From: Escherichia phage vB_EcoS_fFiEco03
Reading direction: 5' to 3' (one strand)
Length of the DNA: 43,947 nt
Sequence record: NC_073315.1
The notes beneath the pieces are model-generated. The model did no database searches. It was not told the origin of the DNA and saw nothing but the letters and a program-made list of their open reading frames with translations. This document shows positions 4,992 through 36,831 of this stretch, piece after piece; within the stretch, counting starts at the first letter, position 1, and each line of letters opens with the position of its first letter. Position numbers and translations under genes: made by a program.

Positions 4992-5020
4992 TTGACTTTT
5001 CACTAAAAATATGCTAAGCT
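4992..5020 (+). promoter_or_regulatory. Sigma70-like promoter, class III (TTGACT-N17-TAAGCT, extended -10 TG)
   Basis: -35 TTGACT, 17-nt spacer ending in TGC, -10 TAAGCT. Near-identical to the promoter at 36798..36826. Confidence 0.6.
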
Positions 5021-5026
5021 CCACCT

Positions 5027-10908: not shown

Positions 10909-12075
10909 ATGGCTACAACTCCTTTTAAGGGCGCGAATACCGCGCAATTCTATGTGGCGGAAACTACCCCGGGCGTGACACCGACTTCCCCGGTATGGTC
11001 GCCGTTGCGCAATACTGGCGGTGTTCCTGCGGTAACCCGCGACGCGCTGACCTCCAACGAACTCGACGGCAGCAGAGAAACCACATCCATCCGCACCGGT
11101 AACAAACAGGTTAGCGGGGAGTACGCCATCGAACTTAGCTCACGTAGCCAGGATGATTTCCTTGCGGGTGCTATGACTTCTACGTGGCAGGATGGGGTAG
11201 AGATTACGGGTGCTGAAATTACGGTCGCTCCAGCAGGTAAAACATTCACCCGCGCTGCCGGTAGCTTCATTACTGACGGTGTAGAAGTTGGCGACCTGAT
11301 TGCGTTCACCGACTTAACCGGCGACAACGCAAAACCGTTTATCGTGACTGAGGTTTCTGCTCTTGTAGTTACGGGTGCGGGTATCCAGCACACGCTGACA
11401 GCAGAGACTGTAACCACCGACGCTAAAACAGGCGATAAACTGGAAACCGGTAACGCATGTAAGACGTTCTCCATCCTGACATGGTTCAAAGGACAGTGCG
11501 GGAACCCTGACGCGTACATGCTGACCAAAGGCGTGGAAATCTCCGGTTTCACCATTGAACAGGCCGTAAACGCGATGGTGACAGGCAGCTTCCCGTTCAT
11601 CGGTCTGAGTCAGGAAATTCTTTCTGCACCGCCAGCAGGTTCTGATTTCTCTCAGGTGACGTTTACCGATGAGCCGTTCTCATCCGTAGATGTGTCTGTG
11701 TTCGACGGTTCTACGCCGTTGCGTTGCGATACTCTGACCATCACCAACGACAACGGTGCGTCCGCACAGTTCGAACTAGGCAACAGTAGCGTCGCGTTCG
11801 TGGAACGTGGTCGCGCGGCTAACACATTCTCCATCTCCGGCAAGCTGTACGACATGGCGATGATTCAGAAGTTTATCAACGAACAGCAGGTAGAGATTAA
11901 CTCTATTCTGGCGGGGGTAAACGGGGCTATGTCTTTCAGCCTGAAACGTGCCGAGTTGACCGCAGTTACGCCAGAAATATCTGGCCCAGAATCAATCACC
12001 CAGAGCATAGAGGGACAGTCCACCGGCAATCAGTACCAGTCATCTATCGTAATTCAGCGTATTAGTTACACATAA
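10909..12075 (+). CDS. Major tail protein
   Basis: ATG at 10909 with AAGAGG RBS; about 388 aa; followed by a strong terminator and, further on, the chaperone and tape measure genes. Confidence 0.65.
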   Translation: MATTPFKGANTAQFYVAETTPGVTPTSPVWSPLRNTGGVPAVTRDALTSNELDGSRETTSIRTGNKQVSGEYAIELSSRSQDDFLAGAMTSTWQDGVEITGAEITVAPAGKTFTRAAGSFITDGVEVGDLIAFTDLTGDNAKPFIVTEVSALVVTGAGIQHTLTAETVTTDAKTGDKLETGNACKTFSILTWFKGQCGNPDAYMLTKGVEISGFTIEQAVNAMVTGSFPFIGLSQEILSAPPAGSDFSQVTFTDEPFSSVDVSVFDGSTPLRCDTLTITNDNGASAQFELGNSSVAFVERGRAANTFSISGKLYDMAMIQKFINEQQVEINSILAGVNGAMSFSLKRAELTAVTPEISGPESITQSIEGQSTGNQYQSSIVIQRISYT

Positions 12076-12182: not shown

Positions 12183-12815
12183 ATGTTCTTGTATGAAGAA
12201 TTTGAAAAGATACCAGCATCAAAACGGGCGGTATCATGCCGTAAAACAATCTGCGGAGTCGGTGTCAACGATGCAGATTTCACCACCAGTATTTTCAACG
12301 GCAAAAAGTCTGTTAACCACCCGGTGTACGATATTTGGTGTGCGATGATATTCAGGTGCTACCATGGGTCCGTTAAGCATCCAACATACTCAGGAGTGGT
12401 AGTGTGTGAAGACTGGCTGTATTTCTCCAACTACTTTAAATGGTACAAAGATAACTACGTAGAGGGTTGGCATGTTGACAAAGATTTGCTTACGGATTCT
12501 AAAGAATACTCACCGGATACCTGTATATTTGTCCCAAGAGTTTTAAACAACTTTCTAACCGACAGCGCAGCGGCTAGAGGTGACCTACCGATAGGCCTTA
12601 CTTATAGGAAAACAAACGGCAAGATTCGATGCAGGGTTAATAATCCGCTAACCGGGGTGCGCGAAAACTTAGGCGATTTTACCGATTTGGATGAAGCCAT
12701 CAAGGCCAGAACGCTGCGGAAGTTAGAGATAGCCGGAGAACTTAAGCCACTTATGGATTCCATAGACGGGAGAATCTATCCGAGGGCCGTTTCTGTAATT
12801 AAGGCACAACGATAA
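12183..12815 (+). CDS. Putative homing endonuclease (HNH-like nuclease domain plus C-terminal AP2-like DNA-binding domain)
   Basis: N-terminal W..M..RC...HP.Y.G..VC.DW..F..F..W...EGWHVDKDLL...YSPDTC pattern; C-terminal GKIRCRVNNPLTGVRENLGDFTDLDEAIKA (AP2-like); free-standing between terminators. Confidence 0.55.
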   Translation: MFLYEEFEKIPASKRAVSCRKTICGVGVNDADFTTSIFNGKKSVNHPVYDIWCAMIFRCYHGSVKHPTYSGVVVCEDWLYFSNYFKWYKDNYVEGWHVDKDLLTDSKEYSPDTCIFVPRVLNNFLTDSAAARGDLPIGLTYRKTNGKIRCRVNNPLTGVRENLGDFTDLDEAIKARTLRKLEIAGELKPLMDSIDGRIYPRAVSVIKAQR

Positions 12816-12819
12816 AACT

Positions 12820-12845
12820 AAGGCCCCTTTCGGGGCCTTTTTCTT
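12820..12845. terminator. Bidirectional intrinsic terminator (28-nt sequence repeated at 24735..24762)
   Basis: AAGGCCCC-TTTC-GGGGCCTT with U-rich flanks on both strands; convergent junction. Confidence 0.7.
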
Positions 12846-22732: not shown

Positions 22733-22744
22733 AGAGGACTCTAT

Positions 22745-24736
22745 ATGTCAAGCGGATGCGGTGACGTTTTAAGCCTGGCGGATTTACAAACCGCCAAGAA
22801 GCACCAGATTTTCGAAATCGAGGTTATCACCGGTAAAGCAGGCGGTGTAGCCGGTGGAGCAGATATTGATTATGCAACGAACCAGGTTACCGGGCAGACT
22901 CAAAAGACTCTGCCCGCCGTGTTGCGTGATACTGGTTTTTCTCCTGTATCGTGGGATTTCTCCACTGGCGGTACTCTTACTGTTAATGACCGTGACAAAG
23001 TTGTCTACGACCCTGTAAGTAAAACGTGGTATTCATACGCAGGTACGTTGCCGGTTGTAGTCCCCTCGGGCTTTGACCCGGTAGGCAACGCAGACTGGAA
23101 GCCACAGACTGACCATGATTTGCGTAATGATTTGGCGTCAAGTACCGCCGGTTTAGGGGCTTCACTGGTGTCTTTTTCCAACGGTAATACCGTTGAAACA
23201 TTATCCGACGCAGATGGCGCTAAGAACATCGGCAGTGGAGAAAGGACATTGCTTGAGCACAACAATGATGTTTTGCACTCAAAAGACTTCCCAACACTGC
23301 AGGCAGCTATAGATGCATCTTTGCAAAAAAATGATCTACTGGTGTCTCCTGGTAATTATACTGAAAACGTGACGCTTGGTAATGCGCAACTGAAAGGCGT
23401 AGGTGGTGCTACGGTAATAAAGCCACAAGGTGATTTTTCAACTGCAGTGATGGCAAAATTATCAACACCACATTGGCAATACAGGCATAGTTGTAATTTT
23501 GAAATAGACGGAACCGGTACAACTGGTTCTGTCGGTTTTGGTTATGACCCTACGGACCAGTACTCGGGTCGTCACAATCTAAGCGATACCTACATCCATC
23601 ACATTAATAAAGCAATTTCTAAACCTTCTGGAAATATTGGTAATACTTTTCGTAGTATAGGTATTAACAATTGTGACTGGGGATATCACGCCATCAGTGG
23701 TACAGAGATGCACTGTGGAGCAGACACTCTGTATAACTTCCATATGAATAGCATTAGTACTTACGCTGTGTATCTGAATGCAACTATAGGAGCATCCTCT
23801 ACAGGAGGGGGAATTGGTGGTTGGTGGTTAAAAGACTCTATTATTGAAGGCTCAGAAGGTGGCGGGGTATATCTTAAGAATAAGCCAGGAGATTGCCCAA
23901 GTGCACCGTGTGGAATATCAAATGTATGGTTTGAGGCCATAGCCACTGCTGATGCAGTAAATGTTGATGGTGCTGCTATAGAACCAAGAACTTTACATTT
24001 AATTGACACAAGCATTTTCTATGCTGAATATTCATACATAAACAGCATAAAATTAGAAAGGTCAAACCTTATAACATACGGCTGTCGTTTCGATAATGCC
24101 GATGGAAATCAGAGTATAGAGATAGATGCTGAGAGTACTATTAAGGCTTACGATACTTATCTTAATGGCACTCCCGGTAAAGATGTTATTGTTGAGAGTA
24201 TAGCTTCACAGACGGGTAAGCTTCACACCATTGACCTGTGTTTGAGGGGTTCTATTACAAAAGGCAGACTGTTTAATACTCCTTCGGGGAATAAGTTGGC
24301 AGCAATACCTTTTGATGACGGAACGCATACATGGGGCGGGAATGCTAGTGTAACAGGGACCCTGGTAGGTATGGGGCTTCATTCAAAAAATTGTGAATCA
24401 TTTACATTCCCCGCTAACGCTGTTCTGGAATTAACTGACTCCAAAGTCAATATCACCAGCGGTAAGTGGTATGTATGGGGCATTAATGCCAGACTTAATT
24501 CTGGTGATATGAATATGAGGATTACAGGGGGGATCACTTTGGGTAGTGTTTATCTCAAGCAAGGTGAATGGGTCAGTACATTTGGAGTTGCTCAGGCCGA
24601 GGCATCAGAATCTGCAACGTTATACGTTACAACTTCTTCTGCGAGTGTTGTATATCTTGCTGACTATTTTGTTGCTGAATTTGCATCTCAGAGTGAGGCA
24701 ATGGCTTTCGCAAATACCAGAATGTCGTTGGTCTAA
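22745..24736 (+). CDS. Tailspike protein (conserved N-terminal anchor plus beta-helix-like receptor-binding or depolymerase domain)
   Basis: 663 aa with AGAGGA RBS; N-terminus MSSGCGDVLSLADLQTAKKHQIFEIEV recalled as the Jersey-like tailspike anchor; C-terminal part AT-richer with repetitive beta-helix-like motifs. Confidence 0.75.
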   Translation: MSSGCGDVLSLADLQTAKKHQIFEIEVITGKAGGVAGGADIDYATNQVTGQTQKTLPAVLRDTGFSPVSWDFSTGGTLTVNDRDKVVYDPVSKTWYSYAGTLPVVVPSGFDPVGNADWKPQTDHDLRNDLASSTAGLGASLVSFSNGNTVETLSDADGAKNIGSGERTLLEHNNDVLHSKDFPTLQAAIDASLQKNDLLVSPGNYTENVTLGNAQLKGVGGATVIKPQGDFSTAVMAKLSTPHWQYRHSCNFEIDGTGTTGSVGFGYDPTDQYSGRHNLSDTYIHHINKAISKPSGNIGNTFRSIGINNCDWGYHAISGTEMHCGADTLYNFHMNSISTYAVYLNATIGASSTGGGIGGWWLKDSIIEGSEGGGVYLKNKPGDCPSAPCGISNVWFEAIATADAVNVDGAAIEPRTLHLIDTSIFYAEYSYINSIKLERSNLITYGCRFDNADGNQSIEIDAESTIKAYDTYLNGTPGKDVIVESIASQTGKLHTIDLCLRGSITKGRLFNTPSGNKLAAIPFDDGTHTWGGNASVTGTLVGMGLHSKNCESFTFPANAVLELTDSKVNITSGKWYVWGINARLNSGDMNMRITGGITLGSVYLKQGEWVSTFGVAQAEASESATLYVTTSSASVVYLADYFVAEFASQSEAMAFANTRMSLV

Positions 24737-24740
24737 AACT

Positions 24741-24766
24741 AAGGCCCCTTTCGGGGCCTTTTCTCT
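24741..24766. terminator. Bidirectional intrinsic terminator (identical copy of the 12820 hairpin)
   Basis: AAGGCCCC-TTTC-GGGGCCTT followed by TTCTCT; junction of the convergent tailspike and replication operons. Confidence 0.7.
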
Positions 24767-24902
24767 ATTCTTCTGATACCTTCTCCAGTATAAACGCCAG
24801 TTGCGCGTTAGCGGCATCTCTCTGTTGCCGTAGTCTTAGCACTTCCTCTTCAAGTTCCTTGATACGTTTTTGCAATGCCGGAATCGGGGCTATGATGTTC
24901 AT
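24765..24902 (-). CDS. Micro-ORF: 45-aa coiled-coil peptide
   Basis: Hand-translated (MNIIAPIPALQKRIKELEEEVLRLRQQRDAANAQLAFILEKVSEE); its ATG overlaps the upstream stop (ATGA); last gene of the - operon. Confidence 0.35.
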   Translation of the reverse strand: MNIIAPIPALQKRIKELEEEVLRLRQQRDAANAQLAFILEKVSEE

Positions 24903-25084
24903 TTCTTACCTTCGCTTTTCTTGAAACTGCGCTTTATGTCCGGCAGCGTGTAGCAGCGTGACTTTTCGTATTTACCGTCCGAGCTTACCAAGACAAAGCT
25001 GTTGCCGTCTTTTGATATGTACTCGATGGTGAAAGTATTGAATGAATGTACGCTGTATATTTCATCGCCAACATTAAGTTTCAT
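24899..25084 (-). CDS. Hypothetical protein, 61 aa
   Basis: ATGA-coupled to the helicase gene stop. Confidence 0.45.
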   Translation of the reverse strand: MKLNVGDEIYSVHSFNTFTIEYISKDGNSFVLVSSDGKYEKSRCYTLPDIKRSFKKSEGKK

Positions 25085-27217: not shown

Positions 27218-27502
27218 CTAACTATAATAGTTCGCTATTAGGTCGTCAACCTGTTTGAACGACCCGACGACAAAAACATTCGCGCCGCGTTTGCGCATAC
27301 GCTCATGCTCACGTAACTGGTGTGGGTCTGGCTTCGTGTTTTCGTCTTTCTTAACCTCGACGAACCAGACGATACCGTTGGGGAGAATTACCAGCAGGTC
27401 GGGGGCGCCGGAACGCCCCTCGTAGGAAAGTTTACGAACGAGGCCGCCGATAGCCTCGAATCGCTCTTTTGCGTATTTCTGGATGCGCCCCTCTTTAGTC
27501 AT
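27218..27502 (-). CDS. VRR-NUC domain nuclease (putative)
   Basis: 94 aa from ATG 27502 (ATGA-coupled); pattern G.PDLLVILPNGIVWFVEVKK...Q consistent with a VRR-NUC PD-(D/E)xK core (recalled). Confidence 0.55.
   Translation of the reverse strand: MTKEGRIQKYAKERFEAIGGLVRKLSYEGRSGAPDLLVILPNGIVWFVEVKKDENTKPDPHQLREHERMRKRGANVFVVGSFKQVDDLIANYYS
27221..27249 (-). promoter_or_regulatory. Sigma70-like promoter, class II (TTGACG-N17-TATAGT), embedded in the 3' end of the VRR-NUC gene
   Basis: On the - strand: TTGACG, spacer ACCTAATAGCGAACTAT, TATAGT. Same design as the promoters at 30954 and 33569. Confidence 0.55.
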
Positions 27503-30900: not shown

Positions 30901-30953
30901 CGTGATTTCTCGCTTTTCAGTTTACTCCGGGAACTGCCCGGCCAGTGATTAGA

Positions 30954-30982
30954 ACTATAATAGCTAACTATTCAGGTGTCAA
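30954..30982 (-). promoter_or_regulatory. Sigma70-like promoter, class II (TTGACA-N17-TATAGT)
   Basis: On the - strand: TTGACA, spacer CCTGAATAGTTAGCTAT, TATAGT; upstream of the SSB-like gene. Confidence 0.6.
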
Positions 30983-30986
30983 CACT

Positions 30987-32261
30987 TTATTCTAAATCTT
31001 CTTCACTAACACGACTCCACTCAGGCCGTTTGTCGCCCGCCGTTGTGATGCATGGGGCACCTGGTTTACGTGTGATGAAGTCTTTCAGTTCTTCTTCCGG
31101 CACAACTTTAACCGCTTCGGTCGGCGTCATGAGCACTTCTTTAGTCAGCTTGTCGCCGTAGAGTTCTGTTACTTTCTCCGCGTCTTTCCACGCACGATTG
31201 CCCATCTTACCTTCAACCAGCTTGTACCCAGGAACTTTCTTACCGGAATGCAACGCGGCAGCCATAGCTTTCTCAACCTTGTCGATGTGCTGGCGCAACA
31301 ACGGCAACTTCTCGTACTCAGCTACGAGTTCCTCCGGCGTAAGTTCCAGCGCAAAGTCGTCCTCCAGTTCTTCCGCCAGTACATCGTTAACGGTTTTTGT
31401 ACGCGCGGCGCATTGTTCAGAGAACCGACACCACTGACAACCATCGACCGACGGCTTAAAGTCAGACGCTTTCAGGTTCTTCTTGCCGCGGGAATAGGCA
31501 TCGAGCGCTAACAGTGCTCGTTTTTGTGCAAACTTAGCGAACAGTTCAAGGCCTTCAACCGAGATGTCCCACTCCGACGCACCGCCCGCGTACGGCTGGA
31601 AGATAACCAGACGGACCACGGTGATGTTATAACGTCTCTTGAGTCTGCGATAAACACCGAGAGCGTAAAGCATAAGCTGCTTGTTTTCTTTCGCTTCGAC
31701 ACGATGCCGACCCGTTTTAAGGTCGCCAATAATGAGCATGTACTCGTCGGTGTTAGCCAGTTCCTGAACGGCAACAAGGTCAGCCGTTCCGAACGTCTCT
31801 AAATCATCTTCCTCGCCTTCTTCACCTTCAACGGGTACTTTGTACCCGGGGTGTAGAATCTGCGTAAGATTGATACGCATTTCCAGCTTGGCGTAAGTCG
31901 CTACATCAATAATCGCTTTGCAGTAGTCGGTATACTTTTGCACCTGCTCAATCATGTCCGCCGTAATCAGTACCGCGCCTTTCATCGGGCTGATTAGCGC
32001 CTTAATCTGGCCTTTACCCTCATCCAGCACGTAAGCACCGACTTCACGCTCTAGCGGCAACGCAGTTCCGCGGATATAGGCGTTGAGATGGACCTCAGCT
32101 ATTGTGTGCATAGCTGTGCCTAATACAGCAGCTTTACCGGACGTGTTAGGGATATCTTTTTCACAGGCAAGTGATGCGGCGCAACTTAGCCACTTTTTAG
32201 CGCCTGACGGCGACAGTAATGCGTGAACATCGTTATTGCCGCCGCGTTCCTTTAAAATCAT
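30987..32261 (-). CDS. PD-(D/E)xK exonuclease, Cas4/RecB-like (DUF2800-like) with Cys cluster
   Basis: Start at ATG 32261 (ATGA-coupled); C-terminal CQWCRFSEQC plus N-terminal Cys; IIGDLKTGR and QLMLYALG motifs. Confidence 0.65.
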   Translation of the reverse strand: MILKERGGNNDVHALLSPSGAKKWLSCAASLACEKDIPNTSGKAAVLGTAMHTIAEVHLNAYIRGTALPLEREVGAYVLDEGKGQIKALISPMKGAVLITADMIEQVQKYTDYCKAIIDVATYAKLEMRINLTQILHPGYKVPVEGEEGEEDDLETFGTADLVAVQELANTDEYMLIIGDLKTGRHRVEAKENKQLMLYALGVYRRLKRRYNITVVRLVIFQPYAGGASEWDISVEGLELFAKFAQKRALLALDAYSRGKKNLKASDFKPSVDGCQWCRFSEQCAARTKTVNDVLAEELEDDFALELTPEELVAEYEKLPLLRQHIDKVEKAMAAALHSGKKVPGYKLVEGKMGNRAWKDAEKVTELYGDKLTKEVLMTPTEAVKVVPEEELKDFITRKPGAPCITTAGDKRPEWSRVSEEDLE

Positions 32262-33538: not shown

Positions 33539-33568
33539 TTTATCTCTCCTCTCGTTTGGTATGGGCTA

Positions 33569-33597
33569 ACTATAATAGCGAACTATTCACATGTCAA
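33569..33597 (-). promoter_or_regulatory. Sigma70-like promoter, class II (TTGACA-N17-TATAGT), divergent from the Cro-like gene
   Basis: On the - strand: TTGACA, spacer TGTGAATAGTTCGCTAT, TATAGT. Confidence 0.6.
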
Positions 33598-33621
33598 TGG
33601 GCTTTTCTAAAATAATTAATA

Positions 33622-36797: not shown

Positions 36798-36826
36798 TTG
36801 ACTTTTACTTAAAAATATGCTAAGCT
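36798..36826 (+). promoter_or_regulatory. Sigma70-like promoter, class III (TTGACT-N17-TAAGCT, extended -10 TG)
   Basis: Near-identical to 4992..5020 (spacer differs at 2 positions). Confidence 0.6.
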
Positions 36827-36831
36827 TCACT

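Follow-up and report, generated by a model that had tools for sequence, protein, structure and literature searches.

The tailspike gene at positions 22745-24736 of Escherichia phage vB_EcoS_fFiEco03 (NC_073315.1; all 43,947 nucleotides were analysed and are called the window here) appears to be a mosaic in which a genus-typical Kagunavirus anchor carries an O-antigen beta-helix module that crosses genera, the whole having been built by repeated homologous recombination; the probability of this reading is put at roughly 0.8. The mosaic structure, the junctions and the composition rest on sequence comparison, and the fold on a predicted model. The product would be the single tailspike of a Kagunavirus coliphage, in which about 130 N-terminal residues attach it at the tail tip, beside the J-like central fibre, and a short conserved linker and neck (residues 130-195) join this anchor to a receptor-binding module made of a beta-helix (residues ~196-510) and a C-terminal beta-sandwich (residues ~511-663). 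The module most likely binds, and probably cleaves, an Escherichia coli O-antigen. The gene would have been assembled by repeated homologous recombination instead of one swap. Positions 23213-24724 would belong to a pool of modules that pass between Kagunavirus, Skatevirus-like siphoviruses, P22-like prophages, T7-like Kayfunavirus and Kuravirus, apparently by way of the coding motif LSDA/DGAKNIGSG (codon 157) on the left and the terminator on the right. Since the tailspike decides which E. coli serotype can be infected, the identity of the module and its junctions are useful for host-range prediction and for engineering by module swapping.

Both flanks of the tailspike gene share 93-96% nucleotide identity with the Kagunavirus (Guernseyvirinae) coliphages Snoke, fBC-Eco01, Schulenburg and fPoEco01, the locus order downstream of the J-like gene is syntenic with that of Snoke, fPoEco01 and Golestan, and the window is, as judged from these homologies, a Kagunavirus genome. 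The tailspikes that the backbone relatives carry at the same locus are different, that of fPoEco01 resembling the K5 lyase and that of Snoke resembling the G7C fibre. Snoke is homologous (96%) through the upstream genes as far as 23130 and again from 24741 onward, with no homology in between, and homology to fPoEco01 resumes at 24736. At the DNA level, coverage of the gene stays at or below 50% in all of 50,697 phage genomes (best identity 77-78%), and the best full-length protein matches, at 71%, are those of the Golestan-group Kagunaviruses. PHROG 27367, 'tail fiber protein', matches the whole length (E 1.1e-280, residues 1-662), and several 'tail spike' PHROGs match residues 1 to 110-160 only.

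The two ends of the gene lead to different relatives. Over nucleotides 1-389, nearly all Kagunavirus tailspikes are 80-86% identical and 363 Salmonella phage records are 60-80% identical, and the first 510 nucleotides have matches in 512 phage records (363 Salmonella, 110 Escherichia, others). The N-terminal 131-190 residues are found again, at 80-95% amino acid identity, in front of C-terminal parts with PF27114, PF13472 (GDSL), PF13229, PF12708 or PF03009. Residues 1-129 are, by these matches, the anchor common to Kagunavirus and Salmonella Jersey-like tailspikes, and an earlier interpretation made without database searches (the sequence-only reading) was right to liken the N-terminus to a conserved Jersey-like one, which hundreds of Guernseyvirinae phages share in combination with many different C-terminal domains. 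In Pfam, the P22 gp9-type head-binding domain PF09008 is unmatched in this region and PF18668 (TSP1-gp66 N-terminal domain) scores 18.2 bits at residues 77-110, under the cut-off of 25; residues 43-129 are 25-28% identical to relatives bearing PF09008 or PF18668. The last 1482 nucleotides match 32 phage records, among them Golestan-group Kagunaviruses, T7-like Kayfunaviruses (e.g. LM33_P1), the ES17 group of Kuraviruses and a few others, and none of the 32 is a Salmonella phage. The corresponding C-terminal part recurs behind the PF09008 P22 head-binding domain (junction at residue 43), PF18668-type N-termini (residue 53 or 72), the PF03906 T7 tail-fibre N-terminus (residue 95), the long ES17 fibre (residue 122) and others (residues 153-188). 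The halves thus do not share their nearest relatives: the anchor leads to Guernseyvirinae, and the module to Skatevirus-like, P22-like, T7-like and Kuravirus sequences.

Three junctions can be given at the nucleotide level in this gene, at codon 129/130, at codon 156/157 and at the terminator. The first coincides with the motif LASSTAGLGASLV (residues 130-142), the point at which Snoke diverges in the protein alignment. The linker that follows (residues 130-156) is 100% identical in amino acid sequence to Golestan and P0001 and 63-74% identical to ES17, P0012 and P0017, and is unrelated in Snoke. The second junction lies at the related motif LSDA/DGAKNIGSGERTLLEHNNDVLHSKDFPTLQAAIDASLQKNDLLV, where all module-bearing proteins converge in the alignment, and DNA homology to four unrelated backbones (L005, L007, LM33_P1 and ES17) starts at one point, 23212/23213 (codon 157). 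The left junction is therefore placed, by alignment, within a motif conserved across genera. The sequence-only reading had set the boundary near codon 170; its division into anchor and module stands, and the junction itself moves to codon 157 (nucleotide 23213). Beyond it, the neck (residues 157-195) is 97% identical in amino acid sequence to L005 and LM33_P1 and 77% identical to L004 and the prophage tailspike of E. coli PSJ-07. The right end of the module lies 12 nucleotides before the stop codon, and the conserved flank there is the terminator.

Over positions 23213-24724 the module shares 94.4% nucleotide identity with L005, 91.3% with L007, 95.1% with the PSJ-07 prophage tailspike and 89% with L015, all four with one sharp left edge at 23213, as in LM33_P1 and ES17. 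The flanks of L005 match swi2 and BASEL phage Bas80, a Skatevirus (PMC11990801), so L005 is taken to be a Skatevirus-like siphovirus; in L007, a P22-like prophage, Arc/Mnt/antirepressor genes precede the tailspike and the integrase follows it. Positions 23501-24724 differ from the PSJ-07 prophage tailspike at 15 nucleotides and 5 of 408 amino acids, which shows one version of the module in circulation, nearly unaltered (98.8%), in both a virulent siphovirus and a temperate P22-like prophage. This exact version was found in one prophage and in metagenome assemblies, and in none of the sequenced phage isolates of the collection searched.

The closest relative also changes along the gene. By its informative sites, the window goes with L004 at 23150-23230, with L005 at 23236-23481, with L004 and L007 at 23632-24115, and with L005 again at 24131-24700, and in maximum chi-square tests 0 of 500 permutations reached the observed value in all four triplets. 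Sliding identity divides the locus as in Table 1, and the gene is, on these comparisons, composed of at least six tracts with different closest relatives, the module itself being recombinant. A simpler history, in which the anchor descended vertically together with the backbone and everything past about codon 170 was replaced once and recently, would account for the main composition step at ~23240 and for the sharpest homology edge to foreign phages at 23213, but it is highly improbable. In the anchor core (22805-23104) the closest relatives of the backbone drop to 60-86% identity, from 98-100% just upstream, and contig L020, with a divergent J gene (56-86% identical to the window), matches the core at 98-100%; the closest relatives of the anchor core (about 22805-23164) and of the upstream gene are thus different. 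At least three changes of closest relative occur within the module. The horizontal replacement of a host-specificity domain proposed by the sequence-only reading accordingly holds with regard to the foreign module, the non-uniform GC content and the different relatives, but not as a single two-piece swap, which the informative-site and sliding-identity analyses already contradict.

Table 1. Tracts along the tailspike locus and their closest relatives by sliding nucleotide identity
Tract	Closest relative (identity)	Poorer matches
up to ~22804	Snoke and L004 (98-100%)	
22865-23104 (anchor core)	contig L020 (98-100%)	L004 75-86%, Snoke 60-80%
23105-23224	L004 (95-100%)	Golestan ~90%
23213-23500	L005 (98.3%); LM33_P1 (95-98%) up to ~23344	PSJ-07 79.5%
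23501-24724	PSJ-07 prophage tailspike (98.8%)	L005 93.5%
24725-24900	L004 and L020 (95-100%)	Snoke 75-93%
from ~24905	Snoke (96-98%)	

Base composition follows the same division. Codons 1-170 have 50.2% GC, close to the window mean of 50.5%, and a third-position GC (GC3) of 47.6%, while positions 23255-24736 have 41.7% GC and a GC3 of 32.7%. GC therefore steps down within the gene, with a maximum-likelihood change point at 23240 (codon 165) whose likelihood ratio was reached in 3 of 500 permutations, in good agreement with both the genome-like first codons and the AT-richer sequence from ~23250 described in the sequence-only reading. Among all 1482-bp segments of the 43.9-kb sequence (mean 50.4%, standard deviation 2.8%) the minimum starts at 23261 and 0.09% are equally low; the GC3 of the tailspike gene (36.5%) is the lowest among 25 long open reading frames (mean 54.3%, standard deviation 6.0%).

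Close and distant sub-lineages of the module (positions 23213-24724) were then compared for GC, GC3 and the GC of their flanks. Module GC and GC3 are 41.8% and 32.7% in the window (flanks 50.8%), 40.4% and 31.0% in the Kagunavirus L004 (50.0%), 40.7% and 31.1% in the Skatevirus-like L005 (44.0%), 40.5% and 30.9% in the P22-like prophage L007 (47.2%), and 41.0% and 31.4% in the P22-like L015 (46.3%). The distant sub-lineage (Golestan, LM33_P1, ES17 and the IMG/VR loci L016-L019) has modules of 46-47% GC with a GC3 of 41-45%. Low GC is, by this comparison, a heritable signature that the close sub-lineage carries in each backbone, and because the AT-richness concerns synonymous positions and accompanies the module in five other backbone contexts, horizontal movement is favoured over a local bias. 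That the AT-richness would instead reflect the amino acid composition of, or selection on, a beta-helix protein of no foreign origin is barely credible, even though the C-terminal domains of other Kagunavirus tailspikes also lie under backbone GC (46-47% vs 50-52%). The drop is greatest at third codon positions (GC3 of 32.7% vs 47.6% in the anchor and a gene mean of 54%), the Golestan/LM33_P1 sub-lineage has the same fold and 70% amino acid identity yet a GC3 of 43-44%, and equally low GC accompanies 89-95% nucleotide identity in backbones of 44-51% GC. GC3 and the sister sub-lineage both speak against an amino acid effect as the cause of the GC drop.

The fold was predicted with an AlphaFold monomer model (alignment of 50 sequences, mean pLDDT 83.6). 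In the model, residues 1-41 are disordered, residues 43-120 form a small beta domain, helices occupy residues 126-191, and a long run of short strands (residues 196-505) is followed by a beta-sandwich (residues 516-663). The central domain is, in this prediction, a right-handed parallel beta-helix, in line with the beta-helix-like repeats noticed in the sequence-only reading, to which a C-terminal sandwich can now be added. Foldseek aligns ~150 residues of the sandwich to CBM22, CBM16 and CBM4 structures with target TM scores of 0.5-0.63, and its sequence is 96% identical to PSJ-07 and 52% identical to LM33_P1 at the amino acid level. Seven acidic residues of the helix (D327, D364, E368, E397, E428, D450 and D461) are kept in at least 95% of 58 homologues, down to ~45% identity, and are candidates for a catalytic site. 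The term depolymerase is suggested for this protein by the modelled fold, and the tailspike presumably forms a trimer.

Several known systems resemble the window in part. The Golestan group (VB_EcoS-Golestan, MG099933; phiEc3/phiEc4; 22664BS2; fEg-Eco06) shares the genus backbone, the post-J locus, an anchor of 91-93% amino acid identity, an identical linker (residues 130-156), the module family and nearly the length (661 vs 663 residues), but differs in overall amino acid identity (71%), in the beta-helix (70%), in the C-terminal domain (52%) and in module GC (46.5% vs 41.8%); judged by these differences, the module of the window belongs to another sub-lineage. The tail fibre of the T7-like Kayfunavirus LM33_P1 (GP44, 'Phage tail fibers') is 61% identical in amino acid sequence over residues 95-662, has the same junction motif and is 95-98% identical to positions 23225-23344, but sits in a podovirus backbone and has a T7 gp17-type N-terminus (PF03906 in P0025, a relative of the same length with the same junction). 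As the receptor-binding parts of LM33_P1 and the window have diverged, subtype specificity may differ. The tailspike of the P22-like (Lederbergvirus-type) prophage of PSJ-07 (WP_338388487.1; relatives L007 and L015) is near-identical over 23501-24724 with the same low GC, but belongs to a chromosomal temperate podovirus, has a PF09008 P22 head-binding N-terminus 25-29% identical to the anchor of the window, and is 79.5% identical over the neck (23213-23500). The beta-helix tailspikes CBA120 TSP2/TSP4, HK620, Sf6 and P22 and the Klebsiella depolymerases likewise have a right-handed parallel beta-helix followed by a C-terminal domain, but at 9-16% sequence identity, and a shared catalytic motif is not established.

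With regard to the receptor, Kagunavirus phages need surface glycans (PMC11990801). The O-antigen cluster of E. coli PSJ-07 (L011, NZ_AP027619.1) has 'O25 family' wzx and wzy genes and ends with fnlA, wbjC, wecB and wbuC. A 98.8% identical prophage tailspike in an O25-family strain with genes for the sugar FucNAc makes O25(a) the likely receptor, FucNAc being the sugar that sets O25A apart from O25B (PMC8260533). The receptor of the window's tailspike is most plausibly an O25-type O-antigen, perhaps O25a, the form that contains FucNAc. That the receptor would instead be a capsule (K antigen) or an O-antigen other than O25 is rather unlikely: the prophage copy in the O25-family strain is intact, the host of LM33_P1, the sole relative with a cited host serotype, is an ST131-O25b:H4 strain (PMC5434335), and the one carrier with an O96 cluster has a broken tailspike. 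A more tentative and rather doubtful proposal is that the AT-rich sub-lineage is the O25a-specific counterpart of the O25b-infecting LM33_P1 module, and that sub-gene tracts of 250-1200 nucleotides are exchanged between virulent siphoviruses and temperate P22-like prophages of the same serotype. LM33_P1 is reportedly restricted, in the paper that first described it, to O25b strains. If the proposal were true, a comparison of the two modules (helix 70% identical, C-terminal domain 52%) would show which residues tell O25a from O25b, subtypes that differ by one sugar and one O-acetyl group.

Several points weigh against the reading of the gene as a mosaic with an O-antigen-processing module. The receptor assignment draws on one intact lysogen, PSJ-07, in which wzy is frameshifted. 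Among complete E. coli genomes the module occurs in just one more, ET734, where IS1 and IS3 interrupt the tailspike gene and the O-antigen cluster is of the O96 type; this genome counts neither for nor against the O25 assignment. A similar complete gene is already present in the Kagunavirus L004, so the cross-genus step may be old. The structural matches of the beta-helix mix hydrolases, lyases, epimerases and adhesins, and the fold search does not part a hydrolase or lyase from a pure binder. No Pfam domain scores above threshold in the tailspike, and with the sub-threshold PF18668 as the sole Pfam signal no enzyme family can be named; a sequence search of the PDB gave no related solved structure, its sole match (E 0.61) being spurious. 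Heparan sulfate was the sole interaction detected for the ES17 fibre, despite a putative depolymerase domain (PMC7885116).

That last report, together with the carbohydrate-binding-module-like C-terminal domain and the failure of Pfam, PDB and fold searches to assign a catalytic family, is what would be expected if the module were a non-enzymatic adhesin that binds its glycan and leaves it uncleaved. This is judged distinctly unlikely, given the seven acidic residues conserved across 58 homologues, the enzymatically active tailspikes that are the closest structural neighbours of the module, and the general tendency of siphoviruses with O-antigen tailspikes to process the glycan (PMC11990801).

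In ET734 the module lies within a P22-like prophage at argW, and several his proteins are identical to those of PSJ-07. O-antigen replacement and tailspike decay may have taken place in these related strains.

The principle of module swapping is already published, and the gene is a clean new example that leaves current understanding unchanged. Witte et al. 2023 (Virol J, PMC10408124) found that anchors cluster by genus and receptor-binding domains by serogroup, the latter moving among Kaguna-, Kayfuna-, Lederberg- and other genera, with conserved motifs before and after the exchanged domain. Their downstream terminator motif was described for Gamaleya-, Kutter- and Justusliebigviruses and single Kayfuna-/Nouzillyvirus cases, but not for Kagunavirus (PMC10408124). 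The motifs were absent from prophage genera in that study (PMC10408124), whereas here, comparing by description, the coding junction motif is also found in the P22-like prophage copies. One database record, MZ417522.1 ('Mycolicibacterium phage J1', 24,953 bp), holds an E. coli-phage-type tail fibre 60% identical to the module in amino acid sequence, with the same match pattern as ES17, and is probably mislabelled or contaminated.

The features of the tailspike locus are collected in Table 2. Snoke has an annotated ribosome-binding site at the position equivalent to the Shine-Dalgarno-like sequence. The tailspike start codon lies 12 nucleotides past the stop of a J-like tail gene (20102/20249-22732; product of 827-876 residues) that matches PHROG 469 and PHROG 31, tail protein/'central tail fiber J'. 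This J-like gene is 98-100% identical to Snoke and L004, 56-86% identical to L020 and Golestan, and 66-76% identical to fPoEco01; on these identities, the tail-tip gene is itself exchanged independently of the tailspike anchor.

Table 2. Features of the tailspike locus and the second repeat copy (window coordinates)
Feature	Coordinates	Strand	Basis
Tailspike gene, 663 residues	22745..24736	+	ATG start, 663 codons plus TAA; open reading frame listing
Shine-Dalgarno-like AGAGGA	22733..22738	+	6 nucleotides 5' of the tailspike ATG; read from the sequence
Anchor, residues 1-129, genus-typical N-terminal attachment domain	22745..23131	+	homology to Kagunavirus tailspikes
Linker, residues 130-156, LASSTAGLGASLVSFSNGNTVETLSDA, first junction motif	23132..23212	+	protein alignment
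Module start and helical neck, residues 157-195, DGAKNIGSGERTLLEHNNDVLHSKDFPTLQAAIDASLQKND...	23213..23329	+	homology edge; helices 158-191 in the model
Right-handed parallel beta-helix, residues 196-510, predicted glycan-binding and probably glycan-cleaving domain	23330..24274	+	AlphaFold model, Foldseek
C-terminal beta-sandwich, residues 511-663, carbohydrate-binding-module-like	24275..24733	+	pLDDT >93 in the model
29-nucleotide stop-plus-terminator repeat, right conserved flank of the cassette	24734..24762	+	exact repeat, terminator scan; hairpin 24741-24760, then T run
Second copy of the repeat, closing the HNH endonuclease open reading frame	12813..12841	+	exact repeat

The sequence TAAAACTAAGGCCCCTTTCGGGGCCTTTT is identical in the two copies of the repeat. 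The sequence-only reading had described a shared terminator repeat of 28 nucleotides at the end of the gene; the repeat is indeed exact, and its length is 29 nucleotides when the stop codon is counted. The hairpin has a folding energy (dG) of -15.4 kcal/mol (z -3.6), and the Snoke annotation has terminators on both strands at this place. The second copy closes an HNH endonuclease reading frame (12183-12841; PHROG 953, E 1e-68) that has 44.6% GC, below the genome mean, and directly follows the reading frame 10909-12075; a probable homing endonuclease gene and the tailspike gene thus have one exact 3' end in common, stop codon included. An HNH endonuclease gene also lies directly 5' of the tailspike gene in two P22-like prophages (L011, 4984-5493; L013, 10127-10615).

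Between the terminator and the helicase gene, the small reading frames 24777-24914 and 24899-25084 (minus strand) vary among close relatives. The 61-residue frame downstream of the terminator (PHROG 27617) is 96-98% identical to Snoke at the nucleotide level, while the stretch is at background level (35-46%) relative to L004 and L020, making it a second small variable spot beside the tailspike cassette. Elsewhere in the window, AACTATAATAGC..ACTATT elements are repeated in the early region (27220-27263, 30953-30996 and 33568-33611), and a further repeat, TTGACTTTT...AAAAATATGCTAAGCT, occurs at 4992-5024 and 36798-36830; from their sequences, these reiterated elements look like promoters or operators.

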